DNA from: an uncultured Alphaproteobacteria bacterium
GTDB taxonomy: Bacteria > Pseudomonadota > Alphaproteobacteria > Paracaedibacterales > CAITNM01
Assembly: GCA_903874955.1 (NCBI GenBank)
Contig: CAIQTY010000037.1
Location: forward strand, 5,397-69,396
Direction of reading: 5' to 3'
Length of the DNA stretch: 64,000 nucleotides
A program made the translations under genes and the position numbers. Below, piece after piece: positions 23 to 55,962 of the stretch. The stretch's first letter is position 1. Every line of letters starts with the position of its first letter. A model generated the notes under the pieces. The model ran no database searches and was not told the DNA's origin. It saw nothing but the letters and a program-made list of their open reading frames with translations.

Positions 23-769
23 ATGTTCTCACTTAATGGCTTTTCAGCTCTTGTAACTGGTGCTAGTGGCGGTATTGGCAGATCAATCGCTTTAGTTTTA
101 GCAAGGCAAGGTGCAAGTGTAGTGCTTAGTGGAACCAGGGCGGAAGCATTAGAAGAAACGGCTAGAGAAATTTCCCTACTAGATGGTATTTCCCAAAGCG
201 TCATTTGTAATTTGTCTGATCCACTTTCAATAGAATCCCTTTTCCCAAAAGCTGAAGAAATTTTTGGAAAAATTGATATTGTTGTTAATAATGCAGGTAT
301 AACTCGCGATGGGTTGGCGATGCGCATGAAAGACGAAGATTGGCAGGCGGTGATTGATGTTAATTTGACGGCAAGTTTTCGTATTTGTAGGGCTGCATTA
401 AAAGCAATGATGCGCCGTAAATATGGCAGAATTATTAATATCTCATCAGTCGTAGGCTTAATGGGAAATATGGGGCAGGTAAACTATTGTGCTTCTAAGG
501 CTGGTTTGGTTGGTATGTCAAAAGCCTTAGCTCAAGAAGGTGCCTCCAGAGGAATAACCGTCAATTGCGTGGCGCCAGGGTTTATTGAAACGCCTATGAC
601 CCATGATTTACCAGCAGGCGTCCGTGACAAGTTATTAGCAAACATTCCTTGCGGTGCCTATGGAAAGCCAGAAAATGTGGCATCAGCGGTTGCTTTTTTA
701 GCCAGCGAACAAGCTGGGTACATCACCGGCCAAACCATTAACGTTAATGGTGGGATGTTGATGATTTAG
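23..769 (+). CDS. fabG: 3-oxoacyl-[acyl-carrier-protein] reductase (classical SDR)
   Basis: 248-aa ORF with TGASGGIG dinucleotide-binding motif, NNAG, catalytic Y-x3-K (YCASKAG) and FabG-like C-terminus GQTINVNGGMLMI. Confidence 0.85.
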   Translation: MFSLNGFSALVTGASGGIGRSIALVLARQGASVVLSGTRAEALEETAREISLLDGISQSVICNLSDPLSIESLFPKAEEIFGKIDIVVNNAGITRDGLAMRMKDEDWQAVIDVNLTASFRICRAALKAMMRRKYGRIINISSVVGLMGNMGQVNYCASKAGLVGMSKALAQEGASRGITVNCVAPGFIETPMTHDLPAGVRDKLLANIPCGAYGKPENVASAVAFLASEQAGYITGQTINVNGGMLMI

Positions 770-774
770 GCTGC

Positions 775-2382
775 TTAGCTGCTCAGTGGGATGCACGCCC
801 TGACAAGCCCAGTAAACAATGGATGAGGCCTGAATGGCCTTGAAATTAGCTCTGGGTGAAACTGACAGGCTATAAAAAATGGGTGAGGGCTATATTCAAT
901 AATTTCAGGAAGTAGCTCATCAGGTGACATACCAGAAAATACATATTTTTTCTTTTCTAGAGCTTCTTTATATTTCATGTTGACTTCATAACGGTGCCGG
1001 TGACGTTCTTGAATTTCTGTTTTTCCATATAAATTAAACGCGAGCGTTTCTTCTTTAATGGTGCATGGGAAAGAGCCAAGGCGCATGGTGCCACCTAAGT
1101 CATCAGAAACACCACGTTTTTCTTTTTCTTCGCCGCTCATCCATTCTGTCATGCGGGCGACAACAGGATTATTGGTAGGTCCAAATTCCGTGCTTGATGC
1201 GTCACGCATCCCAAATTCGGTTCGAGCTGCCTCAATAACAGTGAGCTGCATTCCAAGGCAAATGCCAAGCAACGGGATATTATTTTTACGTGCATAATTA
1301 ATGGCCTGAATTTTTCCATCAATTCCTCGAGCGCCAAATCCACCAGGAATTATTAGTCCATCAACACTTTGGATTTTTGCAAGCAAGCTTTCGTCTTCGG
1401 CATCAATCCAATTTTTTTCAATTTCTATCTGTTCTGCAATTCCGGCATGGGTGATGGCTTGATCAAGGGACTTATAGGCATCTTTTAGTTGAACATATTT
1501 ACCAACAATACCGATACGGACTTTTGCTTTAGGGCTTTTTAAGCGAAGATTTAAAGCTTGCCATGGTTTTAAGTCAGGTTGTTGTTCAATGCCGAACGCA
1601 TTAGCCACTGCCTGATCTAGGCCCTCTTGGTTATACACCAAAGGTATTTCATAAATATTACCAGCATCTTGTGCACATATGACATTTTCATAGGATACGT
1701 TGCAAAACAATCCTAATTTTTGTCTTGCTTCTTCAGGAATATCATGTTCACTGCGGCACAAGAGAATATCTGGTCTAAGCCCGAGAGTTTGAAGGGCTTG
1801 CACTGAATGTTGGGTTGGTTTTGTTTTAAGTTCCCCTGCAGCCGCCAAATAGGGCAAAAGTGTTACATGTACAAGAATGCTATTTTTCTCGCCCAGTTCG
1901 TTTCTGATCTGCCTGATCGATTCAAAAAAGGGTAGGGCTTCGATGTCGCCAACAGTGCCACCAACTTCACATATAATGACATCAACCTCATCGCTACCAT
2001 TTCTAATGAAATTTTTTATTTCATCGGTAATATGGGGGATAACCTGGACCGTGGCTCCTAGATAATCACCGCGTCGTTCTTTAGCAATAACAGAAGAGTA
2101 AATTTTTCCTGAGGTTATGGTATCAAACTTTGTTGCATCTTGGTTAGTAAAACGTTCGTAATGGCCAAGGTCTAGATCCGCTTCAGCGCCATCATTGGTG
2201 ACAAAAACTTCACCATGTTGATAAGGATTCATTGTACCAGGATCAACGTTTAAGTACGGGTCAAGTTTACGTAGTCGCACGGATAAACCACGTGCCTGCA
2301 AAAGCGCCCCTAGCGCAGCACATGCAAGACCTTTACCTAGCGATGAACTTACGCCCCCGGTCGTAAAAATAAACTTAGCCAT
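775..2382 (-). CDS. pyrG: CTP synthase
   Basis: 535-aa ORF. N-terminus [18 protein letters not shown] matches the amidoligase domain. C-terminal class I glutamine amidotransferase has GICLGMQ and QFHPE. Confidence 0.95.
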
Positions 2383-2384
2383 AT

Positions 2385-2657
2385 TTATGGCTTAGCTGGA
2401 GTTTGGCTTACGATTTTTGTCTGGTTTTTAATAGAATGACTGGTAAGCACCGTCATGAATAAACAGTTTGCCATAAAGAGTGCTGCTAACCCTGCTGTTA
2501 CCCTAGTTAAAAGGTTTGCTGATCCGCGAGCCGTGAACATGCTACCGCTGTTTCCACCGCCGCCCATACCAAGAGCGCCGCCCTCACTGCGTTGAAGCAA
2601 AATAACACCAATAAGTGCCAACGTTATAAAAATTTGTATAATTAACAGGGTATTCAT
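2385..2657 (-). CDS. secG: preprotein translocase subunit SecG
   Basis: 90-aa ORF with two hydrophobic helices flanking the Gly-rich loop [22 protein letters not shown]. It ends 2 nt upstream of pyrG. Confidence 0.8.
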
Positions 2658-2672
2658 AAAATCCTCGATTAC

Positions 2673-3224
2673 TTATTTCGCGCTAATGATCATGATCATT
2701 TGTTTACCTTCCAGCTTGGGGTTGTGATCAATTTTTGACACTTCCTCAAATTGGCTTTTTACTTTCATTAAAATTTCATAGCCTATATTTTGGTGGGATA
2801 ATTCTCTGCCTCTGAAACGCATAATAATTTTAACTTTATTTCCTTCTTCTAGAAATCTTTTAATCGCTTTGCATTTGATTTCAAAATCATGGGGATCAAT
2901 CATTGGCCTGAGCTGAATTTCTTTAACTTCAACAACTTTTTGTTTCTTTTTTGCCTCGGCTTTTTTCTTTTGCAGTTCGTACTTGTACTTGCCGAAATCT
3001 AGAATTTTACACACTGGTGGCTCAGCATTAGGAGACACTTCCACCAAATCGAGACCTGCGTCTTGTGCCATCTTAATGGCTTCGGATCTGGTAACAACGC
3101 CCATCATGTCACCTTTATCATTAATAAGTCTAATGCGTGGAGCCTGGATTTCGTGATTAATTCGTGGGCCCTCATGACCGCGGGTTTCGCGTTGTGGGTT
3201 TCCATCGTTAGGGAAGCGGCTAAT
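2673..3224 (-). CDS. infC: translation initiation factor IF-3, starting at a non-canonical ATT codon
   Basis: The ORF-track piece 2673..3107 is the IF3 C-terminal part (LDLVEVSPNAEPPVCKILDFGKYKYE). The frame stays open upstream to ATT at 3224-3222 and adds ...RINHEIQAPRIRLINDKGDMMGV, the conserved IF3 N-domain. This gives 183 aa in total. AAGGAG lies 7 nt upstream. Confidence 0.85.
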   Translation of the reverse strand: MSRFPNDGNPQRETRGHEGPRINHEIQAPRIRLINDKGDMMGVVTRSEAIKMAQDAGLDLVEVSPNAEPPVCKILDFGKYKYELQKKKAEAKKKQKVVEVKEIQLRPMIDPHDFEIKCKAIKRFLEEGNKVKIIMRFRGRELSHQNIGYEILMKVKSQFEEVSKIDHNPKLEGKQMIMIISAK

Positions 3225-3231
3225 AACAAGT

Positions 3232-3237
3232 CTCCTT
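3232..3237 (-). promoter_or_regulatory. Shine-Dalgarno (AAGGAG) for infC ATT start
   Basis: Minus-strand AAGGAG with a 7-nt spacer (ACTTGTT) before ATT at 3224. Confidence 0.6.
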
Positions 3238-3268
3238 ATAAGGTAAATACATACTGAAAAACTATCAG

Positions 3269-3290
3269 AAAACTCTAATCTAGTCCACGG
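3269..3290. repeat. degenerate third copy of the core of the repeat found at 3323-3435 and 5862-5973
   Basis: aaaactctaatctagtccacgg compared with aaaactcttaatagactccacgg (3399-3421). It lies about 45 nt upstream of the infC start. Confidence 0.5.
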
Positions 3291-3322
3291 AAATTGAATA
3301 TCGATGAACTTTGCGCTGACTG

Positions 3323-3435
3323 ATGTTGCTTTTGGTTTGAATTCAGCAAACGCTCACGATGTTATTTGAAGAGAATGAAGCGTAAAAATTCACTCTGCAA
3401 AACTCTTAATAGACTCCACGGGACTTGTGTTTATC
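3323..3435. repeat. direct repeat copy A (~113 bp), flanking the 753-aa orphan gene
   Basis: Two blocks align without gaps to copy B. The 28-nt block at 3323-3350 has 2 mismatches to 5862-5889. The 52-nt block at 3384-3435 has 3 mismatches to 5922-5973. A ~30-nt middle part is more diverged. Confidence 0.9.
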
Positions 3436-3446
3436 CCATGAAGTCT
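3411..3446 (-). terminator. 13-bp hairpin 4 nt after the stop of the 753-aa gene (possible bidirectional terminator)
   Basis: On the minus strand AGACUUCAUGGGA-(10 nt)-UCCCGUGGAGUCU pairs fully, with two G-U wobbles. On the plus strand those positions are C-A mismatches, but the hairpin is followed by CUUUUAUUUCCCUUU. Confidence 0.4.
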
Positions 3447-3449
3447 CTT

Positions 3450-5711
3450 TTATTTCCCTTTAAATAATTCAATAATTTCAGCAGGTGGTTCTTGATACTG
3501 TTCTGTATAAGCGTAAAACCAATAAATTATCTTAAGTATTTCTTGATCAGTTAGCATTGTTTGTCCGTTTAATTTTTTTCGAACAGTATTTCTAATTATG
3601 TCAGCATTTTTAAAATAATCTTTTAGTGTCTTTTTAGCAAGAAATGCAGTTGGATTTTTTAAAGATTTTGCGTTCATTAATTCGTTATAAAGTTTCTCCA
3701 TTTCAAGCTCAACGATAGAATCATCGAGATAAAGCCGATCATTGTCTTCTCTATCATTATTTTCCTTGTTTTCCTCATAAAGCATCTCTGCGAGAATTTT
3801 AGCAGAAGAAGCAACTTTAGAAGACGAGCCATTATTTTTATCGTCGACGATCGACCGTATAGAGCTACCTTCTGCTGCAATTGAATCACTGGTTCCATTG
3901 TAGCAAAGGTTAGTAATAAAAGCGGTCAAGAACGTTACCCAATCTTTATCAGGACTATTTTTTTCAATTAAAAATCTGAAAGTTTCACGAATACTTATGG
4001 GTAGGACCATCAATCTTTCACGAACTTTTTCTATATATTTTTGTTTTAATTGCTTAAGTTGATCAACACTAGGTGGAACTATAGTGTACAGTTTTTTGTA
4101 TTCGGTGATGTAATCTTCCGTCAAATCTTCAGCGTGAAGATCGTTAAATGTTGTGATAGGGTCTATTTTTGGTCCAATGTCCCCAAAAAATGCATGTCCA
4201 TTATCAATATTAGGAAATCTTCTTTTATTTTGTTTTACAGCTTTCTCTGGGGCAATAATCAATTTTTTAGAAGGAAAAAACAAACAGCCTTTTGTATCTG
4301 TATTTGACAATACATCATCCAGACTAAAATTTAAATTTCCATGATTTTTAATTATTTTAATTCTATCTAGAGCATCGCTAAATTCTTGCATATAAGTATC
4401 TTGCTCTGCCATTCCAGTTAACCCCATAGATGCACCGCGAATAACATCAGAGACAATAAATGCTTGAATTTTTTTGTCTGTCATAAGTTTTTCAAGTTTG
4501 GGCATAACCTCGTTCATGAAGAATTGAACATATAATTGTTCATCAGCATTCAAACCATCAGGCATACTGAAATGTTTTTGATTATTCCAGAAATGCCATT
4601 GTTTAGCGCTATTGTTAGGTGCCGAATGTGTTATTGATGGTTGTCCAATAGGTTGTTTTGCTGCACTAGCATCTTGCGCTTTTTGGACTTTAATCGTTCC
4701 GTTTGTTAAATTTTCATCTAAAAAAATATAAAGGTTTAGAACTATTTCTGACTTTTGAATGTCTGTGAGAGCTCCAGTATCTATAAAAAGACGGATATTT
4801 TTAAGTCCACCACCTGGATTTCCATAAAGCACGCTACCCACAAAGTTGCCTAATTCCTCAGCTACTAAATTTTTCCCGTCGTTATTCAAGTTAACGAAGG
4901 TTATTACTAAAGTTTTAATCCAATCAGCTGGTTCAGTATTTTTTCCAGCAAAACATGCAACGCCGATTCTTTTTAGTTCGTCTAGCATAGAAGTATATCT
5001 TCCATCTGTTTTAGCAATTGCATTAGTAATAATTGTGCTATAATTTTCTTGAGCATCTAGCTGATCTCTTCTTGCTGCTTCAATACTTCTAAGGCGCTCT
5101 TCCTCAGCTCTTCTTGCTTCTTCACGTCTAAGACGCTCTTCCTCAGCTCTTCTTGCTTCTTCACATCTAAGACGCTCTTCCTCCAATCTTCTTTCTTCAT
5201 CTTGATAGGGCAGAGCTTTCCTTGGGGTGTAAATATAATGAGGTTCAGCACCTATACCTCTTTTCACCAAGTCATTTAAAACCTTTGCATGACCTTCAAC
5301 TGAACTAGTATCTTTTGAATCCGCATACCATATTTCATCTTTCGTAAAATTAAGATTGCGCCCATAAGCAGCGGCTTTTTTGACAATTTCTTCAATAAGA
5401 GCTCTCTCACTAGTATTTGCTGTAAGTTTTGATGTAACGCCATTCTTATATCCATGACCGGTCATCATTCCTAATACAAGCTTTGAAAATTCAATCTCTT
5501 TAAGGTTTTTTTGTTTTAAATCATTTTCTAAAACTGCTAGCGCACCAACCACATCTAACTGAGTTTTTAATTCTGCTTTCTTGGCTTCAATGGCATCTTT
5601 TTTTCGATCACGATATTGCCTAATATCAGCATGGCTTGCTATTGATTCAGTATAAGCTTTACTACCCACCAGGGTTGAAAAGATAAAAAAGGTAATTTTA
5701 AAATACATCAT
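3450..5711 (-). CDS. orphan secreted protein, 753 aa, internally duplicated, with charged ER-rich repeat
   Basis: Long uninterrupted ORF with a hydrophobic N-terminus (MMYFKITFFIFSTLVGSKAYTES). Two related modules are visible (G.NLNFTKDE / GNLNFSLDD; ADWIKTLVITFVNLNNDG / KDWVTFLTAFITNLCYNG). I recognise no family. Confidence 0.7.
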   Translation of the reverse strand: MMYFKITFFIFSTLVGSKAYTESIASHADIRQYRDRKKDAIEAKKAELKTQLDVVGALAVLENDLKQKNLKEIEFSKLVLGMMTGHGYKNGVTSKLTANTSERALIEEIVKKAAAYGRNLNFTKDEIWYADSKDTSSVEGHAKVLNDLVKRGIGAEPHYIYTPRKALPYQDEERRLEEERLRCEEARRAEEERLRREEARRAEEERLRSIEAARRDQLDAQENYSTIITNAIAKTDGRYTSMLDELKRIGVACFAGKNTEPADWIKTLVITFVNLNNDGKNLVAEELGNFVGSVLYGNPGGGLKNIRLFIDTGALTDIQKSEIVLNLYIFLDENLTNGTIKVQKAQDASAAKQPIGQPSITHSAPNNSAKQWHFWNNQKHFSMPDGLNADEQLYVQFFMNEVMPKLEKLMTDKKIQAFIVSDVIRGASMGLTGMAEQDTYMQEFSDALDRIKIIKNHGNLNFSLDDVLSNTDTKGCLFFPSKKLIIAPEKAVKQNKRRFPNIDNGHAFFGDIGPKIDPITTFNDLHAEDLTEDYITEYKKLYTIVPPSVDQLKQLKQKYIEKVRERLMVLPISIRETFRFLIEKNSPDKDWVTFLTAFITNLCYNGTSDSIAAEGSSIRSIVDDKNNGSSSKVASSAKILAEMLYEENKENNDREDNDRLYLDDSIVELEMEKLYNELMNAKSLKNPTAFLAKKTLKDYFKNADIIRNTVRKKLNGQTMLTDQEILKIIYWFYAYTEQYQEPPAEIIELFKGK
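5088..5199. repeat. 39-bp tandem repeat, ~2.9 copies, in-frame inside the 753-aa gene
   Basis: Units 5088-5126 and 5127-5165 differ at 2 positions, and a third unit is partial. They encode EERLR(C/R/S)EEARRAE 13-aa repeats. Confidence 0.85.
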
Positions 5712-5861
5712 CTTGATTTAAAAATAAAAAAATATAACTATATATCTTTATAATGTAAAAATATTAAAAATTCGTAAAATGAAATTTTATTTTATATGCG
5801 TATTATGTTTTATAAATCTTTGGATCTGGAAGATTTGTTTGTGTTTGATCAATTTTTCAAA

Positions 5862-5973
5862 ATGTTGTTTTGGGTTTGAATTCAGCAAAGATGTAGCATG
5901 TTGTTAAAGAAATCCAAATGCAAAAATTCACTCTGCAAAACTCTTAATAGACTTCATGGGGCTTGTGTTTATC
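5862..5973. repeat. direct repeat copy B (~112 bp), upstream of the 753-aa orphan gene
   Basis: See copy A. Same orientation, offset ~2539 bp. Copy B lacks the 3' hairpin arm present after copy A. Confidence 0.9.
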
Positions 5974-6213
5974 AATTAAAGCACCCTGAGATTTATCAAA
6001 ATAATTGTTGCTTGATGCTGCAGGAGTTGGTTAATAAAATGCTCCACAACCAACACCAACCAGTGCGATTGATAATACCAAACTAAGACAAATATTTTAA
6101 ATTATTAGGAACCCTAATATAAATATATCTCATAATTATAATTTATGTTTTGTTGGTTAATTTTTTATTAATTGTGTGATTCCTTTTATTCCCTTAATGA
6201 CTATTGCTAAAAA

Positions 6214-7131
6214 CTACTGAATTTTATCCGGATCTGCCCCAAAGTATTGCATGGTATCAACCATATGATCGGAAAGGGGGGCGGTGATCACCATCTTGCC
6301 ACCATCGGGTAGGGGGAATGCTAGCTGATAGGCATGCAAGTGCAAGGTTAGTCCCTTTACAGTTGCGCCATATTTATAATCACCCACAATTGGCCAACCT
6401 GATTCACTGAGGTGCACGCGGATTTGGTGGGTTCTTCCGCTTCTTGGCCAGCAATCGACTAAGCAAAAATCACCAAGCTTTTTCTTAAGCATGTATTGGG
6501 TTTCCGCTGGGCGAGCGTGGGGTCCGTTAACGACCATTTTTTCCTTATTGCCAACCATTTCTTTACCAATCGGAAAATCAACTGTACCTTGTGCAGGGCG
6601 CACGTTTCCCTCAACAATGGCTCGGTAGGTTTTTTGCACCCCATGGCTGCTAAATAGGTGGGTAAGATACTGGGCCATCGGAATGGTTTTTGCCATAACT
6701 AAAACCCCACTGGTCTCTTTATCGATTCGATGTACCAGTCTTGCTTCAGGATTATACGCTTTCATAATTGCATCGATATGGCGCTTGGTGCCTGTGCCGC
6801 CTTGAACAGCTAGTCCTTGCGGTTTGTTCAAGGCTATCATGTGTTCATCTTCCCAAACGATGATGGTCTCAATCCATTTGATATCCTCATTGCTAACGTG
6901 AACTTCGCGTTTAATTCTCTCTGTCGAATGGGTTGTGTATAAAGACATATCAACCAGAATGCGAAGTTGTTCTTCAGATTCAACGCGGGTGCTGCTTTTG
7001 GCGGGTTTGCCATCGACGAGAATTTTTTTACTGCGCAGGAGTTTTTCCAAAGCTCCCTGGGTAAGCCCTGGGTAGAGGCGGCGTAAAAATCGATCAAGAC
7101 GGGTCAGATTATATGGAATAGAATCAGTCAT
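6214..7131 (-). CDS. RluA/RluC/RluD-family ribosomal large-subunit pseudouridine synthase
   Basis: 305-aa ORF with an S4-like N-terminus (RLDRFLRR...KLLRSKKILVDGKP) and the catalytic motif HRIDKETSGVLVMAK. Confidence 0.85.
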   Translation of the reverse strand: MTDSIPYNLTRLDRFLRRLYPGLTQGALEKLLRSKKILVDGKPAKSSTRVESEEQLRILVDMSLYTTHSTERIKREVHVSNEDIKWIETIIVWEDEHMIALNKPQGLAVQGGTGTKRHIDAIMKAYNPEARLVHRIDKETSGVLVMAKTIPMAQYLTHLFSSHGVQKTYRAIVEGNVRPAQGTVDFPIGKEMVGNKEKMVVNGPHARPAETQYMLKKKLGDFCLVDCWPRSGRTHQIRVHLSESGWPIVGDYKYGATVKGLTLHLHAYQLAFPLPDGGKMVITAPLSDHMVDTMQYFGADPDKIQ

Positions 7132-8382
7132 TTATTTTGCTTTTACCTCTACAAGGGTTTTCCAATTTGTTGTGTATGCTGGGGTTTTGTGGTCTCTTTT
7201 GTTCATCCATCCGACGCTTTGACCACATGATAATGGACGAACGGTCCCAAGGCCAAAACGTTGATTGATGCTATCCATAACCTTATCAATGTCGGGCTTT
7301 CTAGATTGATTGACTGAAACGAATAATTCTTTAGCAGACGGGGCGTTTGCATCACGCAGGTCAATCGCCATAATACCCAGTTTATGGTAAGCAACCGTTG
7401 GGTCAAAAAAACTTTCAACTGCTTGCTGCGCAAGGGTAATAATCGATGTTGTATCATTCGTAGGAGCTGCCAATACGATTGTTTGCTGATGAAAAACCGG
7501 TTTTTCGCTGCGGTAACGAGAATTCCGAGCGTACACCCAGATGGTCATGGTTTTTTGCGAAGATGCCCGTAGCTTGTGGGCCAGGCGAAACCCATAACGT
7601 GCGATGATTTGTTTTAGGGTTTCTAAATCTTGTACCGGCTCTGATAAGCTTCTGGTAATTTGAATGGATTTTTTGCTTTCCTGAATCAGGCTTAAGGACA
7701 GACATGAAATCCCGCCAAGCTCACGCAGGGTTCGTTCTACAATAACATTATATTTTCTTCTGGCCCAAGCAGGATCAGTCGTCATCAGATCATAGGCAGT
7801 GTATACGCCATGTTCTTTTAGGCTTTTATTAAGCCTTGTGCCAATTCCCCAGATTTTAGCAACGGGAATAGCTTTTAAATTATCATGATAGGCTTTGGTG
7901 TGGTCTATATAGCATGAAATCCCGCGCACTTTGGATTCAAGATTCGCAAGCTTCGCTAAGGTTTTTGTCGGGCCAAATCCAATTGAAGTGGGAATGCCTG
8001 TACATTGTAATATATGCTTTCGAAGCCGATCACCTTCCTCGGCCCAGTTTATTGAATCATTAAATTCTAAAAAGGCTTCATCAACTGAGTAGACTTCAAC
8101 TTTTTCACATTCCTGCTGCAAGATATTCATGACTCTGCGGCTCATGTCTCCGTACAACTCAAAATTACAGGATAGTACTTGGATATCGTAGGCTTTCACT
8201 AAATGGCGTATTTCAAATAGAGGGGCCCCCATGGGAATGCCTAGAAGCTTTGCTTCATTAGAGCGAGCGATAGCGCACCCATCGTTATTTGATAGAACAA
8301 TCACAGGCTTGTTTTCAAGATCAGGCCTAAAGACCCGCTCGCAGGAGACGAAAAAGTTGTTGCAATCAATTAAAGCAAACAT
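7132..8382 (-). CDS. umuC: Y-family translesion DNA polymerase, UmuC-like
   Basis: The N-terminus MFALIDCNNFFVSCERVFRPDLENKPVIVLSNNDGCAIARSNEAKLLGI is near-colinear with the E. coli UmuC N-terminus. ATG at 8382 is preferred over the track's GTG at 8391. The stop abuts the rluC-like ATG. Confidence 0.8.
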   Translation of the reverse strand: MFALIDCNNFFVSCERVFRPDLENKPVIVLSNNDGCAIARSNEAKLLGIPMGAPLFEIRHLVKAYDIQVLSCNFELYGDMSRRVMNILQQECEKVEVYSVDEAFLEFNDSINWAEEGDRLRKHILQCTGIPTSIGFGPTKTLAKLANLESKVRGISCYIDHTKAYHDNLKAIPVAKIWGIGTRLNKSLKEHGVYTAYDLMTTDPAWARRKYNVIVERTLRELGGISCLSLSLIQESKKSIQITRSLSEPVQDLETLKQIIARYGFRLAHKLRASSQKTMTIWVYARNSRYRSEKPVFHQQTIVLAAPTNDTTSIITLAQQAVESFFDPTVAYHKLGIMAIDLRDANAPSAKELFVSVNQSRKPDIDKVMDSINQRFGLGTVRPLSCGQSVGWMNKRDHKTPAYTTNWKTLVEVKAK

Positions 8383-8574
8383 GGGTAGCACCAGATGACA
8401 TTATCAAGAATATAAAACCATATGGTGTTTGCGTCTAGTTATCATATCGTTGGTAAGATTTTATCTCAATATTGTTTTATGAGTATTTTTGAGGGGTGAT
8501 ATTTAATTATTAACTCAATATTAATTGCTGTATTTTAAATTGTAAATACAATAAATAGAAATTATAGGATCAAA

Positions 8575-9912
8575 ATGGAAAACACAAGCGTAAATAATAA
8601 AAAAACGTATTCTGTAAAATTATTGCAGAATGCACTAAAGCTTACCGCTGTTAGTATAATTTTTATTGGGGATGGGTTTTGTTCTGCACCTAAATCAAAC
8701 TCCTATCTATCATCAGCGAGTAGCCTTTTATCATCAGCGAGCAATGCTGTATGGAATAATGCATTTATTCCTACACAAGAGAATCTTGATAAAAAAAATA
8801 TCATAGATCAAATAGTTCTAGGGACACAGATAAAACAAGTTGTAATTGATAAACTATGGAAATTAGATATAAAAAATCTTAAATTAATACAAAAGCTAGT
8901 TACAGGAATGAATTCTTCTGATGGAATAATATGGTGTGAGTTTTTTGCTAAAAAATCATTTGCTTATCTTAACAAATTAGCTTCACTTGTTAAAAATACG
9001 ACCCCTCAAGCTAAATCTAAGCTGTTAGATCAATCTAAGCTGCTAAATAAGTTTTACCTGGATGATGATTATCTTGAAACAATAGCTTTCCTTACTAAAA
9101 ATATGACCCATGAAGATAAATCTATACTGTTAGAAAAGTCTTCTTCTCTCGGTATGGATGCGCCTGATAAGAGACTTGAATTAATAAATAAATTTAATTT
9201 ATTAGTATCCAGGGGAGTTTTTCGTCCAGTTCTTTTCCTTGATAAGCCAGAGAGTGAAGTTAAATTTGTGGCTTCCATAGAGCATTTTGTTAAACCTGAA
9301 CATTTAAAAGAATTATCAAAAAATATTCGTTGGGTATTGGAAGAAACCAATGTAAATATTACAAAAGGTTATTATGAAGCAATAAATCCTCATAACCCTA
9401 ACATTACTGCATTAAGCAGAGTAGGTGATTTGAATACAAAAGATGAAAACTGGGTTGTTTGTTTAAAATTAGTTCCAATAGAAATTGTTGCATTGTTAGA
9501 AACAATAATTGCAAAATTAAATAAAAAATTAGAAGAAAAAATCATTGATGCAAATCAGTTAAAAGATGCTTTATATGCAATAAAGGTTTTGCTTATAGGT
9601 CATGTCAATAAAATTTATGAATTTGAAATTGATTGCGCTAAAATGGAGCTAGCAGCTAATGAGCCATTTAGAGAATTTAAACAACTACCAGTTTATAGAG
9701 GAAATGCAGAAACATATGATCAGTATAGAGTCGCTAAGAAAAATGCTCAGCAACAAATCCTAGCATGGCAAGAAAAACTCATACGTCATGAAAAAAAGTT
9801 GAATGCCGACGAAGAAAAATTCAGAAATAATCTCCAATCTATCAATAATATTATTGATAATGAACCGGAATTTTACAATAAGTTTATGAATTATATTGTT
9901 CCGTTGACTTGA
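8575..9912 (+). CDS. orphan protein, 445 aa, N-terminal hydrophobic anchor
   Basis: Long ORF in a very AT-rich stretch (16/60 G+C in line 8581-8640) with a hydrophobic segment LKLTAVSIIFIGDGF. I recognise no family. Confidence 0.6.
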   Translation: MENTSVNNKKTYSVKLLQNALKLTAVSIIFIGDGFCSAPKSNSYLSSASSLLSSASNAVWNNAFIPTQENLDKKNIIDQIVLGTQIKQVVIDKLWKLDIKNLKLIQKLVTGMNSSDGIIWCEFFAKKSFAYLNKLASLVKNTTPQAKSKLLDQSKLLNKFYLDDDYLETIAFLTKNMTHEDKSILLEKSSSLGMDAPDKRLELINKFNLLVSRGVFRPVLFLDKPESEVKFVASIEHFVKPEHLKELSKNIRWVLEETNVNITKGYYEAINPHNPNITALSRVGDLNTKDENWVVCLKLVPIEIVALLETIIAKLNKKLEEKIIDANQLKDALYAIKVLLIGHVNKIYEFEIDCAKMELAANEPFREFKQLPVYRGNAETYDQYRVAKKNAQQQILAWQEKLIRHEKKLNADEEKFRNNLQSINNIIDNEPEFYNKFMNYIVPLT

Positions 9913-9940
9913 TAACATAGCGTATGTCTCAACTAAAGCT

Positions 9941-9959
9941 CCTCCGACTAAGTCGGAGG
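9941..9959. terminator. bidirectional intrinsic terminator between convergent orphan genes
   Basis: CCTCCGAC-taa-GTCGGAGG is a perfect 8-bp GC-rich stem followed by AAGCTTTTATT. Confidence 0.6.
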
Positions 9960-9995
9960 AAGCTTTTATTGGGATAACGAAATTTATGAATCGTA

Positions 9996-10967
9996 CTATT
10001 GATCAGTCTTTGCCGTATTGACGGTGTTTGTAGACCTCTTTGAATCATCAGACGATATATGTGTAGTGCTGGTGCTTTTTAGTGACGCACTAGTTGGAGT
10101 AATTGAAACTGCCAAGGTTGCGAGCGGCGCCGACGATGCTGCTGGAGCTGATAATGAATTTGTAGCCGTACTTGCTTCTTTTGATGGATCAATAACTTTA
10201 AGGCGTCCGGTTTCTATTAATTTCTTTTTAATATGTTCCAGCTTTAACAAATCACTCAAGAAGCTATTTGTTTCGCCGCAAATTCTTCTAAATGTCATGT
10301 GAGTATGATAATATTCATGCTCTTTACGGATTTTCTGGTCAAGGGAATACACAATACCATTTTCTCCAACCGTAATCTCTGTAACCATTGGTTTTGGTGG
10401 TTGTTGTCCAAAAAAATTCATAAAAGGAAGATAATTAAGCCGCTTCAAAGAATAATTCACACCTCTCAATAGTAGTGAGTCATCCTGGTTGTCAAAGTCA
10501 AATATACAATGCCCCACAGCCCGTATAAGATCCTTTCTTTCTGAAATGAGCACTGATACGTTTGGATGCGTATCCTGTGCTCCGATTTGATCTAGTTTGG
10601 AATAAAAAGCAGACATGTTATTTAAAACGCTTTTTGCTTGCTTAATATAATCACTGGTATTTTTATAATCACTGATATCTTTAGTTATTGTTTGTGTGAT
10701 TTCAAATTTTATGATTGCGTCGTGGCCTGAAGCTGCTTTTCCTTGGGAAATATAATCGTATATTTCTTGAGCGCTAGAATTAAATTCCTTAAATAGGATC
10801 AGTTGCTTTAATGGTGTAAAGCAGTGCCGTATTACTTTTTTATCATCAGCTGCTAAATCCGAAGAAGTGCTTGATGAAGAACTTGCCGATGAAGCGTGAA
10901 CGAAGTTTACCAAAAAACATCCGACAACGCTGAATAGTAAAGCAATTTTTTTGAAATTTAGGCTCAT
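9996..10967 (-). CDS. orphan secreted protein, 323 aa, Ser-rich ends
   Basis: Signal-peptide-like MSLNFKKIALLFSVVGCFLVNFVHASSASSSSS and a C-terminal S/T/A-rich tail. I recognise no family. Confidence 0.6.
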   Translation of the reverse strand: MSLNFKKIALLFSVVGCFLVNFVHASSASSSSSTSSDLAADDKKVIRHCFTPLKQLILFKEFNSSAQEIYDYISQGKAASGHDAIIKFEITQTITKDISDYKNTSDYIKQAKSVLNNMSAFYSKLDQIGAQDTHPNVSVLISERKDLIRAVGHCIFDFDNQDDSLLLRGVNYSLKRLNYLPFMNFFGQQPPKPMVTEITVGENGIVYSLDQKIRKEHEYYHTHMTFRRICGETNSFLSDLLKLEHIKKKLIETGRLKVIDPSKEASTATNSLSAPAASSAPLATLAVSITPTSASLKSTSTTHISSDDSKRSTNTVNTAKTDQ

Positions 10968-11310
10968 AAGAATCCCCCTTACATTTAAAGTTAATTCACT
11001 GTAATTCTGCCAATTCAGTTAATGGTTTTGGGTTGTATATTTCTATAAAACGTCTTAATTCACGACGAGTTAACAGATGATAAAATTGTAGCAGCAATTA
11101 CGTTAATGCCAAGTAAAGAAGGTGGTGTATTAATAATAAATGTGAGAGTTTTTATTTCACTTTGATTTATTGTGGTCAATGCAAAAAATATTATTTGCTG
11201 ATTTGATAATAATATTTGACTGAAGATAGTGCGCCAATAGATAAACGGCTCTCAATCGCTGCTATAAAAGGGTTGCATTAATATTTTCTTTTGAAATTAT
11301 TCCATGCAAA

Positions 11311-11341
11311 CTAGATCCGTATTCTAAGGTAACGGATCTAG
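11311..11341 (-). terminator. 10-bp perfect hairpin downstream of the 531-aa orphan gene
   Basis: CTAGATCCGT-(11 nt)-ACGGATCTAG lies 41 nt after the stop at 11382. The trailing U-tract is weak (UUUGCAUGG). Confidence 0.3.
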
Positions 11342-11381
11342 CGCGCAAGGAACTTCAGATTTTTTTAGGGTGAGCGTTATC

Positions 11382-12962
11382 TTAGCTTGGTCCTGCTGGT
11401 ACTAAGATTTCGTAGTTTATTGGTACATATAAATTACTTAGATCTAGATTATATAACTCTATATGTGAAGTATACTTGAATGAATCAACTGAAAATTCAT
11501 ACATTTTTAATGGTATGCCTAATTTTTCTTTCAAATGTTTTGCGTAATGGTTGTCAAAAATGCTTGATTCATAAGCAATAAAAAGGCTTTTATTCTCTAG
11601 CGGTTTTTCAGCTTGTTCTAAGGCTGCTCTCATTCCTGGAGTAGACAATTTCTCTAGGTGAGTACCTAAAATTCTGTCGAATAGGCTTTGATGCCTATAT
11701 TTGACGCATTCAAGTAAGCTTCGATCAAATGCTGCATTCGTAGCATCTGCTTCCAACCTATCAAGGATTGCCTCTTTTTGATTCATATAAGCATGAACTA
11801 AACCATCATCTTTTGCTTTTTGGGAAGGCTTTGGATTGCTTGATCCAACAGTTAAAAGTGTTAAGTATTCTTGGTTCCCATGGGCAGCTGCGCAAACATA
11901 TAAGGCATCTATTAGATTTTGCGATGGCAGAGCCGCAAGCCTAGAAAACAAATTCAGGGCCTCTTTTACAATTTTCCATTGATTTTCCCTAGCTTTCTTT
12001 GCAGTGAATGCTTCTACAACGTTGATACTTGGTTTTTTTCCAGTGTTTGCTGATAGCATCTCCTCTGCTCGAACATAATTCCCCCTGTTTAAGGTTAGAT
12101 CTAAAGCGTAGTTTTTTGCCTCAACGGATGGTTTAGGCCAGGACGCACTTGCTAGCATTCTATCCATTAAGGTGTAATTATTGAGTTTTGCAGCTTGAGT
12201 GTACAATAAGATTACACTGGTTTGATCAGGTTGGAACTTTTCTAAAATTTTCATTTTCTCTTCAGTTTCTAGAAGTGAAGTTCCTCTTTTTTTTAAATCG
12301 GTTGTAAAAGCTACGATAAAGCTCTGTGCCAACCAATTTTTCTGCTGATGGCGCATTTGTCGATTGCCTTTTAAAAAAAGCTCAGTATGGTCTAACACAA
12401 ACTGTGCAAACTCTCCAAAACCATGACTATTACAATAGTTCAACAGTCCATCAGCAAAATTAGATTGCCAATCTCTATTGTTTTTTTCTCGCGACGAAAT
12501 AAACCAAATAAATGCTCCAAGATATCCTTTCCCGATGGTGCTTTCAAAATTTTTAAAATGTTGTTCTAGGAAGCTTTTTTTTCCAAATAAAGGAGTTGGA
12601 GTTCTAAAGGGGGTATCGCCGCTTCCAAAAAAATCTTCAAAAGTTTGTTTAGATGCCAGTAAAAATAACGTTCCTTGCCAACCCACTTTGCAAAGTAGGC
12701 TATGAACTAGTTTGCGCTTTTTGAACGTTTCTTTTTGTTCAGATTCATATTGTACGGGGCGTAAACTCTTAAATTCAGCAGGAGCTATTTTTTCTTTTAA
12801 TTTTTCATTGAGTTCAACAATATTTTTTTTAATGTCAGCACTATGTAATAATTGCAGGGCTATCTGTGCTTTTTTCCAGCTTTCCAGCTCGTCTAATGAA
12901 TCTGCTGAAAAAATTGCTGTACACCCGATCCATAGTATCATTATTGTTTTTAGTAGAGTCAT
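11382..12962 (-). CDS. orphan secreted protein with ankyrin-like 33-residue periodicity
   Basis: ATG at 12962 gives MTLLKTIMILWIGCTAIFSADS. (K/L)PS motifs sit at residues 283, 316, 351 and 384 (track numbering), each followed by helix-like segments. An example is PSQNLIDALYVCAAAHGNQEYLTLL, which resembles the ANK consensus. Confidence 0.6.
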   Translation of the reverse strand: MTLLKTIMILWIGCTAIFSADSLDELESWKKAQIALQLLHSADIKKNIVELNEKLKEKIAPAEFKSLRPVQYESEQKETFKKRKLVHSLLCKVGWQGTLFLLASKQTFEDFFGSGDTPFRTPTPLFGKKSFLEQHFKNFESTIGKGYLGAFIWFISSREKNNRDWQSNFADGLLNYCNSHGFGEFAQFVLDHTELFLKGNRQMRHQQKNWLAQSFIVAFTTDLKKRGTSLLETEEKMKILEKFQPDQTSVILLYTQAAKLNNYTLMDRMLASASWPKPSVEAKNYALDLTLNRGNYVRAEEMLSANTGKKPSINVVEAFTAKKARENQWKIVKEALNLFSRLAALPSQNLIDALYVCAAAHGNQEYLTLLTVGSSNPKPSQKAKDDGLVHAYMNQKEAILDRLEADATNAAFDRSLLECVKYRHQSLFDRILGTHLEKLSTPGMRAALEQAEKPLENKSLFIAYESSIFDNHYAKHLKEKLGIPLKMYEFSVDSFKYTSHIELYNLDLSNLYVPINYEILVPAGPS

Positions 12963-13164
12963 AGCACCTCTATTCAATTCTTTTTGATAGCAATATAATA
13001 TATAGTAATAAATATTTTAGTTACAATAAGCATTTTATATTTTTTACGATTTTTAAATTCTTAATGATGCGCTCAAATATATTATTTTTAATGACACATA
13101 GCATTAACTTCTTTTTCAAAAATTGTGTGCTACATTTACTCAGGATATACAAACAAAAATTTTT

Positions 13165-13974
13165 ATGCGCATTCTTTTTCTTGGTGATGTTTATGGCCGC
13201 AGCGGACGAGACGCGATAGCACGTCATCTTCCCTTTTTAAAACAAAAATATAAACCGGATTTTACGATTGTTAATGGCGAGAATGCCGCCCATGGTTTTG
13301 GATTATTGCCAGAAATGGCAAAGGATTTTTTTAGCCTTGGCGTTGATATTATTACCGGTGGTAATCATACCTTTGATAAAACAGAAATTATTGCCGCCAT
13401 GAGCCAAAGCCAAAATATTTTGCGCCCGATAAATTATCCTAAAAATGTTCCAGGAAAAGGCTTTGGGTTATATCCCTATCGGGGTAAAAATCTTTTAGTA
13501 ATTAATGTGATGGCCCGACTATTTATGGAGTCTTTTCTAGATTGTCCATTTATGGCGGTGGAAGAATTATTAAAACGCTATCCTTTAGGTGGTTCTATTG
13601 CAGGCATATTTATTGATATGCACGGGGAGACAACTTCTGAAAAAATGGCTTTAACCAAATATTTTGATGGTAAAGTTTCAGCGGTTATCGGGACACATAC
13701 TCATATGCCTACCGCCGATGCACATATCATGAAAGGTGGAACTGCTTATCAAAGTGATGCGGGAATGTGCGGAGATTATGATTCTGTTATCGGACTTCGT
13801 ACCGATACAGCAACAGCAACATTTTTGAAAAGGGTTCCTAAACCAAAACAACAAGAACCTGCGACTGGTGAGGGAACAGTTTGTGGTGTAATCATTGAGA
13901 TTGGTCAAAACGGCCATGCCGAATCCATTGATCCAATTAGGGTAGGGCCAATATTGAAAAATACTGGCCTATAA
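13165..13974 (+). CDS. YmdB-like (TIGR00282-type) metallophosphoesterase
   Basis: MRILFLGDVYGRSGR... NGENAAHGFG ... GGNHTFD ... HGETTSEK ... GTHTHMPTAD motifs. ATG at 13165 is preferred over the track start. Confidence 0.85.
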   Translation: MRILFLGDVYGRSGRDAIARHLPFLKQKYKPDFTIVNGENAAHGFGLLPEMAKDFFSLGVDIITGGNHTFDKTEIIAAMSQSQNILRPINYPKNVPGKGFGLYPYRGKNLLVINVMARLFMESFLDCPFMAVEELLKRYPLGGSIAGIFIDMHGETTSEKMALTKYFDGKVSAVIGTHTHMPTADAHIMKGGTAYQSDAGMCGDYDSVIGLRTDTATATFLKRVPKPKQQEPATGEGTVCGVIIEIGQNGHAESIDPIRVGPILKNTGL

Positions 13975-13976
13975 TT

Positions 13977-15269
13977 TTAGGCAAAGCGCCTACTAATAAA
14001 CTGGGTTGAATTCGCTGTTTTAAATAAAAAGGGATGACTAAAGAAGAGCATTGCAATTGCGATGTATGCATAGCGTGCTTCTGCAGCTCCTGCTATAAAA
14101 AATAGGGATAACACAAGACTAACGCCCATGATATTTTGGAAAAATAAGCTGACATATTTTGGATTCTTGTTAAAGTTTCTGTATCCTTTATATATATAAA
14201 TAAGCTGCCATAGGAAATATAGTGCATAAGCCATTAACCATTTGGCTATTGTAAAGATGCCTAATTTTTCAATCCAAGTGATTACCTTGGTAATTAAGGG
14301 CGTGCTTTCACCCTTAATATCACTCGGATGCTTGAGAAGCGATACGGTCAATTGTGATTTAAAAACTCCAAAACGGTGTTTCAGGTAGGAAGTGGGATAG
14401 TTAAATATTGCCTTGAGCCAAAATGAGTCTAATGCATCTAAATTATCTGGATTTTCTGTAACTGAAAGAGGGCTGTTATTCGTGTAAATTAAGTCATCAA
14501 GGCGATCAAAATTGTATAGCTTCTTTATTTTTTCGAAATTATAGTTTGGTGCTTGCTTTACATAATCTGGAAAAACTGGCTCATTGAGTTGTATGGATAT
14601 TCCGGCGAGATCGTATAATTTATGATGTTCTCCCCTATTTGAATGGGTGGCCATAGTTTTATTAAACCCTACGACGCCAAGGATGATTACGCAAAAAAGA
14701 ATTAGGCCGGCGAAGATCCAGTTTTTTGATTTGTCTGAAGAATAAAATTTAGCAAGCCAAAGGCACAGCCATGGAAGGGCTAAAGCGCCTTGATAAGTAG
14801 CACACGTCCCATAAAACGCAACGAACAACCATGTCAGCAGCGATAGCCATGATGGCGAGAGATCTTCACGCATACTATAAAAATGTAGCCAAGCAGCACA
14901 GAAAAGATAGGCATTTACAAACGAAATATCCTTAAGAACTAAAAGTTGATAAGCAAAAACAGGCGGCAACAGCGCTATTAAATATACCCACTTTGCTTTA
15001 TGGGGTTCTGCCATTGCAAACAAGGTTGTCGCTGACCAATATAACATTAAATGGAAGATAAACATCGGACCAGGACCGCCGAATACTCTCCCAAAAAGTC
15101 CCCACACAAATCCCATCATCGGGGGATGAAAATCGCTAAGAGTGCCAGCTACCCCTTGCTGCATTTGAATCATACTATCAGGGCGTAACAAGCCAGGCCA
15201 AAATAAAAAAGCACAAACAGAAAAAGCAATAAAAGGTATAAACTTAATGGTAAGTGATTGACGTTGCAA
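13977..15269 (-). CDS. polytopic integral membrane protein (possible GT-C-like glycosyltransferase, uncertain)
   Basis: 430-aa ORF with about 10 or more hydrophobic segments. I recognise no specific motif. Confidence 0.55.
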   Translation of the reverse strand: MQRQSLTIKFIPFIAFSVCAFLFWPGLLRPDSMIQMQQGVAGTLSDFHPPMMGFVWGLFGRVFGGPGPMFIFHLMLYWSATTLFAMAEPHKAKWVYLIALLPPVFAYQLLVLKDISFVNAYLFCAAWLHFYSMREDLSPSWLSLLTWLFVAFYGTCATYQGALALPWLCLWLAKFYSSDKSKNWIFAGLILFCVIILGVVGFNKTMATHSNRGEHHKLYDLAGISIQLNEPVFPDYVKQAPNYNFEKIKKLYNFDRLDDLIYTNNSPLSVTENPDNLDALDSFWLKAIFNYPTSYLKHRFGVFKSQLTVSLLKHPSDIKGESTPLITKVITWIEKLGIFTIAKWLMAYALYFLWQLIYIYKGYRNFNKNPKYVSLFFQNIMGVSLVLSLFFIAGAAEARYAYIAIAMLFFSHPFLFKTANSTQFISRRFA

Positions 15270-43224: not shown

Positions 43225-43881
43225 ATGAAAGTTTTTTTCTATATATTGTTTGGGTTTTTTTTTAGTTTTGCACCTGCCTATGCAGCATATGGTGCTTATG
43301 ATGATGATCCAAGCACAATGGCTGATGATGGAAGCGATCCGAGTGCAGATCCTTATGCAGATCCGAATGCAGGTAATGATGGAAGTGATCCGAGTGCAGA
43401 TCCTTATGCAGATCCGAATGCAGGTGATGATGGAAGCGATCCGAGTGCAGATCCTTATGCAGATCCGAATGCAGGTAATGATGGAAGCGATCAGAATGCA
43501 GGTAATGATGGAAGCGATCAGAATGCAGGTAATGATGGAAGCGATCAGAATGCAGGCGATGATGGAAGCGATCCGAGTGCAGATCCGATGCAGGCACCGG
43601 CAGCTAATGCAAGAGCTGCAGCGCCTGGTGGTCCTTTGACTAAAAAAATCAAGAAACCAAAGCCTAAGACGTCAAAGATGCGAAACAAGAGAGGGGTAAA
43701 GCAAAAGAAGCCAAAAGGTAAAATGCCTAGATTTTTTGGCAAAAAAAACAAGAAATCAAAGGGAAAACCAAAACCTAAAATGCAGCAAAAAAAGCGTTCA
43801 AAACAAAAAACGCCAAAGAAAAATCGTGCAAAATTAAAGAAGCCAAACAAGAAAGCCAAAAGTCTAAAATGCCGCAATTGA
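43225..43881 (+). CDS. secreted repeat protein: acidic DGSDPSADPYADPNAG repeats plus Lys/Pro-rich basic tail
   Basis: Signal peptide MKVFFYILFGFFFSFAPAYA, 17-aa x3 and 9-aa x3 repeats, and a tail KKIKKPKPKTSKMRNKRGVKQKKPKGK... Confidence 0.65.
   Translation: MKVFFYILFGFFFSFAPAYAAYGAYDDDPSTMADDGSDPSADPYADPNAGNDGSDPSADPYADPNAGDDGSDPSADPYADPNAGNDGSDQNAGNDGSDQNAGNDGSDQNAGDDGSDPSADPMQAPAANARAAAPGGPLTKKIKKPKPKTSKMRNKRGVKQKKPKGKMPRFFGKKNKKSKGKPKPKMQQKKRSKQKTPKKNRAKLKKPNKKAKSLKCRN
43327..43587. repeat. in-frame tandem repeats: 51 bp x3 (43327-43479), 27 bp x3 (43480-43560), partial unit to 43587
   Basis: Directly visible near-identical units gatggaagcgatccgagtgcagatccttatgcagatccgaatgcaggtaat and gatggaagcgatcagaatgcaggtaat. 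Confidence 0.9.
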
Positions 43882-52204: not shown

Positions 52205-52206
52205 GA

Positions 52207-52248
52207 ACAACGCCTGAAGTTTTTTAGGCTTCAGGCGTTGTAGTTTTT
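52207..52248. terminator. bidirectional intrinsic terminator between thrS and the FabK-like gene
   Basis: ACAACGCCTGAAG-(9 nt)-CTTCAGGCGTTGT is a 13-bp perfect stem followed by AGTTTTT. Confidence 0.75.
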
Positions 52249-55383: not shown

Positions 55384-55869
55384 TTACTCAGTAACTATTG
55401 GCATTTGGTTTTTCGTTTCCTCTAAAAGCTCAGTGCATAGATTTAATAAATTTTCTATGCGTTTTTGTTTTTTTAAATTTTTTAACTGGTAGGGTTCTCT
55501 ATACAATTCAACAAGTTTTAAAATTAGTTTCAGTGGTGATGATTTGCTGATCGTCGTAAGCTGCTCTAAAATTTTCTGAGCACTAAGCAGAGAGTCAATT
55601 TTACCACCTAATACTTTTTGCTGCGCTAGAAATTCTGCTTGAACGGGAATTGTGTGGTCTAACAACCCTTTAATTGTTAATAGTTTGAAGCCTAAAAACT
55701 TTAATGACAGAATATTAGCTAGTTTTAGTAGCTCGGTTTCCCTATAGACTCTGAAACCATTTTCCTGGTTTTTTAAAGGGGATAGCAGTCCGATCTGATC
55801 ATAGTGATGCAAAGTTCTTACCGATACATTTGTAAGTTTGCTAAATTCACTAATTTTATATTTTTGCAT
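55384..55869 (-). CDS. MerR-family transcriptional regulator
   Basis: The N-terminal wHTH ISEFSKLTNVSVRTLHHYDQIGLL is a MerR signature. Confidence 0.8.
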   Translation of the reverse strand: MQKYKISEFSKLTNVSVRTLHHYDQIGLLSPLKNQENGFRVYRETELLKLANILSLKFLGFKLLTIKGLLDHTIPVQAEFLAQQKVLGGKIDSLLSAQKILEQLTTISKSSPLKLILKLVELYREPYQLKNLKKQKRIENLLNLCTELLEETKNQMPIVTE

Positions 55870-55962
55870 TTTGGCCCCAATTTAATAAACTAGCAGTTTA
55901 TTAAATCGGGTCCAAGGTTTTATTTAAATAAAATTAACTTATTTTGAATTTTGATCGCAATT

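Follow-up and report, generated by a model that had tools for sequence, protein, structure and literature searches.

The analysed DNA is a stretch of 64,000 nucleotides (nt) from an uncultured alphaproteobacterium (assembly GCA_903874955.1, contig CAIQTY010000037.1, positions 5,397 to 69,396), referred to here as the window, in which an orphan gene of 753 amino acids (aa) lies between an rluC-like gene and infC and is flanked by two same-orientation copies of a non-coding unit of about 113 nt, named unit A and unit B. We favour, with about even confidence, the explanation that the two units represent an old, species-specific, two-copy local duplication of the 3' spacer of the orphan gene, produced by recombination and situated at a rearrangement breakpoint, and that they are not a mobile element. 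The feature is of a known kind and of modest interest, and a mobile cassette is unlikely. The original prediction had reported the repeats and offered three explanations for them: insertion, or continued excisability, of the gene through recombination between duplicated spacer sequence; a small dispersed element or small RNA (sRNA) gene family; and a shared regulatory or terminator module.

The orphan gene occupies 3450-5711 on the minus strand, and both units are read in the same sense. Unit A (3323-3435) is the downstream copy, located just 3' of the orphan stop codon and separated from the infC -35 box by about 35 nt, and unit B (5862-5973) is the upstream copy, located 240 nt past the rluC stop codon. 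BLASTN aligns the two as direct copies over 113 nt with 80.5% identity, 1 gap and an E value of 4e-24. An ungapped block of 28 nt (3323-3350 and 5862-5889) contains 2 mismatches (93% identity), and a second block of 70 nt (3366-3435 and 5904-5973) is 84% identical, with 3 mismatches in its final 52 nt; the coordinates and counts originally described were thereby confirmed. The units have an exact 32-nt core in common, and a weak likeness of unit B to unit A may extend to about 5986. A 31-mer of the core occurs exactly twice in the 64 kb versus 0 times in 100 shuffles, and the whole-window repeat search identified the A/B pair as the sole non-tandem, non-coding repeat of at least 30 nt. AT-rich intergenic DNA yields many short spurious repeats, for example the repeat families D3-D17 of the window; however, chance similarity or an assembly artefact is refuted by the E value, by the shuffles and by the presence of the same two copies in independent assemblies from several samples, and has practically no probability left. 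A second haplotype of the source species was found in several ENA and Logan metagenome assemblies, and its unit A shows 0 differences over 3231-3449. The copies do bracket the orphan gene, but not symmetrically: the end of unit A lies 14 nt from the last stop-codon base (3450), whereas the end of unit B lies 150 nt upstream of the ATG (5711).

The divergence between the two copies is distributed unevenly along the unit. Seventeen of the 22 differences fall inside a middle segment of 33 nt and 5 in the remaining 80 nt (permutation scan p = 5e-6; Fisher p = 9e-7). The outer blocks (52 nt and 28 nt) are around 94% identical and the middle around 50% identical. The middle segments nevertheless still look homologous: they retain 50% identity and a similar length (33 versus 32 nt), and transitions exceed transversions by 10:6, as homologous decay predicts. 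The outer blocks are probably kept by purifying selection for some cis-acting or RNA function. If the middle evolves neutrally, its divergence of about 50% would make the duplication much older than the split of the two haplotypes and younger than the split from the sampled relatives. Within the species the synonymous divergence (dS) is around 0.02, whereas the values to the nearest sampled relatives are saturated (rluC, 2.1-3.1; infC, at least 1.7). Since dS is saturated, neutral intergenic sequence is not expected to align with any sampled relative. Gene conversion appears a less likely cause for the 28-nt block, which lacks homologous sequence beyond one of its ends and adjoins the 50% diverged segment at the other.

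The 3' end of the orphan gene carries a stable stem, hairpin A (3411-3446, minus strand), with 14 pairs by RNAfold and an 8-nt loop. Its inner arm (3411-3424) lies within unit A, and its outer arm (3433-3446) lies outside the unit, 4 nt past the stop codon. Folded as minus-strand (sense) RNA, the hairpin reaches -22.5 kcal/mol (z = -7.0) and 0 of 200 shuffles fold as well, whereas as plus-strand RNA it reaches -11.1 kcal/mol (z = -1.9); the asymmetry that had been proposed, with G-U wobbles on the minus strand and C-A mismatches on the plus strand, is therefore borne out by the folding energies. Among 31,976 windows of 48 nt covering both strands of the whole window, hairpin A is the 7th most stable, and five other top-ranked hairpins are found at gene ends. 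Because it stands 4 nt past a stop codon, like the other strongest hairpins of the window, hairpin A is probably a terminator or 3'-end stem of the orphan transcript. The segment 3435-3447 of the outer arm is exactly complementary to the inner arm of unit B and not to the inner arm of unit A itself, which suggests that the ancestral stem was perfect and that the inner arm of A then gained two transitions, both giving G-U pairs in the sense RNA. These two wobble-compatible changes lend weak support to selection at the RNA level.

The earlier statement that only copy A continues into a hairpin also holds, since unit B shows no significant hairpin on either strand (z = -1.3 and -1.6). Folding of 138 nt around each unit gave no unit-wide hairpin (copy B, z = -0.6 and +0.2), and the sole strong stem in these folds is that of copy A, which is built with flanking sequence outside the unit. 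Consensus folding of A and B on both strands gave no usable covariation from two sequences; one fold has no compensatory pair and the other has two, which involve non-homologous flanks. Of the proposed regulatory or terminator module, what remains is that unit A supplies one arm of a likely terminator hairpin and that the conserved blocks suggest constraint. Elsewhere in the window, stable hairpins of -21 to -25 kcal/mol are found between convergent genes (9925-9976 and 52197-52244) and past stop codons (55869-55916 and 11301-11348). Some of the gene-end hairpins are followed by weak U-tracts only, and those at the four positions named are probably terminators of the source genome.

The gene order around the units points to a synteny breakpoint. 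The minus strand carries all genes of 700-8400, in the order dinB-like (7132-8391), rluC-like (6214-7131), orphan gene, infC (2673-3224), secG (2385-2657) and pyrG (775-2382). The identities first given to the two neighbours of the orphan gene were verified: the rluC-like gene, which closes a conserved dinB-rluC block, encodes a pseudouridine synthase of the RluA family that contains an S4 domain, and infC, which opens a conserved infC-secG-pyrG block, encodes IF3. By IF3, the closest named relative is a metagenome-assembled genome of "Candidatus Odyssella sp." (85% identity), and the source bacterium is regarded here as an Odyssella-like endosymbiont. Candidatus Odyssella is a member of the Holosporales, a group living in obligate association with protists (PMC11909080). 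The infC-secG-pyrG block is kept in all relatives examined (L007, L008, L087-L093), and the sequence upstream of infC is occupied there by opposite-strand rnpB, itself preceded by flagellin genes (L007 and L008; rnpB also in L087), by a methyltransferase gene (L088-L090) or by argS (L091-L093). On the other side, rluC is preceded by dinB in L005 and L006 and by an MFS transporter gene in L004, and its downstream neighbour differs in each of these three. The comparison of rluC and infC neighbourhoods that had been suggested thus shows that neither the module of 2.65 kb nor the unit is present in 3 rluC contexts and 6 infC contexts in relatives. The homology upstream of infC runs from the ATT start codon to about 3316, 7 nt short of unit A, so that unit A abuts the end of the ancestral sequence. 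Furthermore, rnpB was not found in the 64-kb window by Rfam at the gathering score, and since rnpB and infC are adjacent in relatives, a rearrangement separated the two. The rnpB-like gene of the relatives, recognised by eye, stands head-to-head with infC (L007, ~5490-5880; L008, ~5495-5860; L087, 1-50).

The upstream region of infC would have come through the rearrangement intact. The ancestral promoter and leader (3225-3316, minus strand) contain TGGACT (3287-3282), a 17-nt spacer, TGATAGTTT (3267-3259), the Shine-Dalgarno motif GGAG (3235-3232) and the ATT start codon (3224-3222). In alignments with L007, L008, L088 and L091 the promoter boxes are invariant although synonymous sites are saturated. 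The invariant block comprises T(G/A)GAC, ~17-18 nt, TGATA-N-TTT, then GGAGACT-N-GTT and then ATT (5950-6010 in L007), and these elements can be read in turn as -35 box, extended -10 box, Shine-Dalgarno sequence and AUU start codon. In Escherichia coli, too, infC is known to begin with AUU. This promoter also accounts for the supposed third, degenerate copy of the repeat at 3269-3290. The segment exists and precedes the ATT start codon (3224) by 45 nt, as had been stated, and 23 of 29 alignment columns are identical to unit A with 1 gap. The likeness is marginal: 5 of 2000 shuffles reach its score, other places in the window score equally well, and no significant similarity to unit B was found. 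We reject the segment as a member of the repeat family and regard it as part of the conserved infC core promoter common to relatives.

No sign of further copies or of mobility was obtained. An nhmmer profile of A and B detected no third copy in the window and 86 loci, and BLASTN of the searched loci gave no further unit copy either. Scans of the GTDB genomes and JGI metagenomes with exact 20-mers of the core returned no match and are uninformative, the source genome not being in these collections; a gapped two-block pattern also had no match in the JGI metagenomes, a collection without the source genome. BLAST against plasmids with the orphan protein and unit A gave no match. Rfam 15 at the gathering score reported one tRNA only over the whole window, and at E <= 5 over 3150-6300 it reported only a chance match inside a coding region. 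In agreement with what was first noted, no integrase, transposase or recombinase domain was detected among the examined genes of the interval from about 700 to 15,000. The Pfam-matched genes of this interval are all housekeeping genes (pyrG, secG, infC, rluC, dinB and a metallophosphoesterase gene), and its four genes without a domain have no match in NCBIfam, PADLOC or PHROGs. No inverted repeat links the ends of the unit or of the module, the sole relevant inverted pair being hairpin A.

The arrangement is fixed in the sampled contigs. Five of five site-spanning conspecific contigs, from different samples, carry the gene between unit B and unit A with unchanged distances, and 3 more end inside the gene. 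Neither an empty site nor a hybrid unit was found in 10 conspecific contigs; the check for an empty site covered every conspecific contig with the rluC protein. Distant homologues of the orphan gene in L002, L003, L103 and L104 have no flanking repeats; those of L002 and L003 stand in another context, leuS-X-NUDIX, and the contigs L103 and L104 are too short to show neighbours. The possibility raised at the outset, that relatives carry the gene without the repeats, is thus realised in four distant homologues, and it counts against a mobile cassette only: a repeat-bounded mobile cassette is disfavoured by these homologues and a local duplication is not. Insertion by recombination between duplicated spacer sequence, one of the explanations first offered, is the best fit in view of the breakpoint and the stop in homology, whereas the part of it that held the gene to be still excisable has no support, no empty site having been found in the conspecific contigs.

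We propose the following course of events. The module consists of unit B, an AT-rich upstream region of 150 nt, the orphan gene, and the hairpin with unit A, and it is placed between dinB-rluC and infC-secG-pyrG. The unit would have started as the orphan gene's own 3' flank, made up of the terminator hairpin and about 100 nt, and recombination would then have put one copy on each side of the gene. This may have happened by unequal crossing-over, by tandem duplication or by Campbell-type integration of a circle carrying slightly over one repeat period. The right-hand end of the module would have been joined about 90 nt upstream of infC, leaving the infC promoter intact. Copy A may have retained the hairpin as terminator or 3'-end stem of the orphan gene, insulating infC and accepting only the two transitions that give G-U pairs. 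Copy B has no stable hairpin. The middle 33 nt of the unit would have drifted while the outer blocks were held by purifying selection.

Several observations weigh against this proposal. No relative was found with the ancestral state, that is, with rluC adjoining infC or with a tandem orphan array, and the order of events is not directly reconstructable. The 240 nt between rluC and unit B carry no trace of a decayed orphan paralogue, and tblastn of the 502-nt rluC-orphan spacer, down to E = 1000, gave noise only. Hairpin A is not followed by a canonical U-tract, its tail being AUUAAGAGUUUUGC, and a terminator scan returned 0 sites in 2600-6300. The flank of unit B matches the outer arm of the hairpin at 6 of 13 positions only, as read by eye. 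Finally, gene conversion, or mosaic exchange with unseen genomic copies, could in principle be the source of the conserved blocks.

Among the alternatives, the best placed, which we still regard as unlikely, is a shared cis-regulatory module, consisting of protein-binding sites or of an upstream promoter with a long leader, which was duplicated so that the orphan gene and infC answer the same signal. Function would then reside in the conserved blocks, with the variable middle holding them at a set distance, as the near-constant length of the middle between well-kept blocks would allow. Each copy precedes a gene of the same orientation, with 150 nt from B to the orphan ATG and 99 nt from A to the infC ATT, and block 2 contains, on direct reading, an 8-bp palindrome, TGAATTCA, and the inverted repeat GTTTG-N7-CAAAC. 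However, scans of the gene strand found no convincing promoter inside the unit, sigma-70-like hexamer matches being no commoner than in shuffled sequence, and the two copies lie at different distances from the likely start sites of the downstream genes. infC has its own conserved promoter downstream of unit A, the module is not upstream of infC in any relative, and no known operator motif was recognised; a search by eye for CtrA, sigma-54, DnaA-box and CcrM (GANTC) motifs found none common to both units. An sRNA gene, or a small dispersed non-coding family with further copies elsewhere in the genome, recombination among which would have made both the rearrangement and the bracketing, is improbable. 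Paralogous sRNAs and intergenic repeat families typically combine a conserved body and a variable segment, the plus strand of copy A ends in a stem and then CUUUUAUUU, and both units coincide with synteny breakpoints. In addition, two Logan contigs from different samples (L099 and L100) end exactly at the end of the common 32-nt core (window 5924), although we take these ends to be breaks of the k-mer assembly graph at the repeated core and not biological junctions. With two copies only in 64 kb, both at one gene, none in the other loci searched by profile or BLASTN, and no Rfam match even at the relaxed threshold, a dispersed element or sRNA family finds no support in the searched data; moreover, copy A forms a weak stem on the plus strand, copy B folds significantly on neither strand, and the consensus folds are drawn from two sequences.

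Very unlikely, in our judgement, is a still mobile cassette bounded by attL/attR-like or attC-like sites and excisable by site-specific or homologous recombination. A single AT-rich, foreign-looking gene (GC content ~0.33 versus ~0.43 for its neighbours) is indeed flanked by direct repeats that contain an exact 32-nt core, and chromosomal attC sites have conserved ends and a variable centre, a loose resemblance to the units. This reading is opposed by the lack of recombinase domains in the genes examined, by the absence of empty sites and hybrid units, and by the four homologues without flanking repeats. Furthermore, the units have no unit-wide dyad symmetry, the GTTRRRY core is absent from both strands of both units on direct reading, and sequences of 80% identity with a 50% diverged middle are a poor substrate for homologous recombination. 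It is also conceivable, although doubtful, that the unit is an undescribed functional non-coding element of the Odyssella-like lineage, acting as a structured RNA or through two protein-binding sites, with its blocks under purifying selection. This last reading stays viable because the uneven divergence is real and has no other firm explanation.

Comparison with known systems places the local duplication of the 3' spacer closest to Campbell-type integration or tandem duplication followed by partial deletion. The features in common are same-orientation copies that flank a lineage-specific insert, a process that needs no recombinase, and a rearrangement junction; in contrast, the units here share only 80% identity, their middle having decayed between conserved blocks, and the donor arrangement was not observed. 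The mosaic pattern of this 80% identity argues for an old duplication event, after which the repeats came under uneven constraint. Hairpin A resembles an intrinsic (Rho-independent) terminator in its position just past the stop codon and in being stable in the sense RNA only, but the lack of a U-tract directly after the stem departs from the standard criterion. Integron cassettes with attC sites, such as the Vibrio VCR arrays, likewise present a single open reading frame (ORF) between direct repeats of roughly 110-125 nt with conserved ends and a variable centre. Unlike these, the present module lacks intI, internal dyad symmetry, a GTTRRRY core and an array, and it holds an unusually long ORF preceded by an AT-rich region of its own. 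The Rickettsia palindromic elements and REP/ERIC-type repeats are similar in that the unit is short, non-coding, intergenic, partly hairpin-forming and present in a protist-associated alphaproteobacterium, but here two copies only were seen, at one gene, the unit is non-palindromic, and no relationship to the described families was found. Insertion sequences, composite transposons and miniature inverted-repeat transposable elements differ in that neither a transposase domain nor terminal inverted repeats were found here. An integrative element with attL and attR differs in that the 2.65-kb module, with its single ORF, has no recombinase domain inside, and the A/B similarity spans 113 nt and is not limited to a short core.

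The orphan gene is real, with 32 representative relatives among 1.84 billion proteins; the best matches outside the species have 35-41% identity over about 570 residues. Its product has a signal-peptide-like N-terminus, an N-domain (~1-175), a coiled-coil repeat region and a C-domain (~180-750). The resemblance of the N-terminus (MMYFKITFFIFSTLVGSKA) to a signal peptide is suggested by its residues. No Pfam, NCBIfam, PADLOC or PHROGs family matched the protein, and Pfam found nothing above the cut-off in 9 homologues. The AlphaFold2 model, computed from a 4-sequence alignment, is all-helical but unreliable, with a mean predicted local distance difference test score of 48. The family is sparse and modular: the N-domain also heads proteins of more than 1000 aa, and the C-domain occurs with other N-termini. 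The first ~175 residues recur at 40-46% identity at the head of otherwise unrelated proteins of 1000-1300 aa (P0192-P0200) that have no Pfam domain, and they may be a common secretion or anchoring module.

Within the coding sequence, an in-frame 39-nt tandem repeat (5070-5186, minus strand) encodes an EEERLR/EEARRA coiled-coil motif, with 3 units and 753 aa in the window versus 2 units and 740 aa in every other conspecific contig. The homologues in L002, L103 and L104 also contain internal coding tandem repeats, and variable repeats seem to be a trait of the orphan family. Between the haplotypes (window 3450-5711 versus L001 4021-6243), the ratio of nonsynonymous to synonymous divergence (dN/dS) is 0.82 for the orphan gene versus 0.14 for rluC, with equal dS of ~0.02, which indicates relaxed or diversifying selection. 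The overall profile would suit a secreted or surface protein involved in host interaction. In the AT-rich spacer between unit B and the orphan ATG (5712-5861, minus strand, 150 nt), the best sigma-70-like match is TTTACA-17-TATATT at 5759-5731, which is a pattern match only.

Other features of the window lie further away. Next to dinB there are three further ORFs, at 8575-9912 (plus strand), 9996-10967 (minus strand) and 11382-12977 (minus strand), the first of them AT-rich (GC content ~0.29-0.32). None of the three has a Pfam, NCBIfam, PADLOC or PHROGs match, so that the dinB-rluC pair is flanked on both sides by genes of unknown function. Coding tandem repeats with periods of 27 nt and 51 nt occur at 43323-43596 in the ORF 43225-43881 and encode an Asp/Gly/Asn/Ala-rich motif. 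In L001, pyrG was called as two ORFs (134 aa and 357 aa; 7311-8766), whereas it is intact in the window and in L094-L096; the split is likely an assembly error or a frameshift in that sample.

The two units and the gene between them offer a clean case, with a date, of how a probably secreted gene specific to its lineage became fixed between housekeeping blocks in poorly known protist endosymbionts, and of a piece of 3' spacer re-used, as it would seem, as a terminator. On the practical side, the A/B repeat fragments short-read assemblies. The consequences are otherwise local, and no general open question is touched by them. In a group that has hardly been studied by experiment, the two conserved blocks present a concrete candidate regulatory element of small size that can be tested. 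If the unit were indeed a functional element, its copies before a fast-evolving secreted protein and before IF3 would tie a host-interaction gene to the control of translation initiation.

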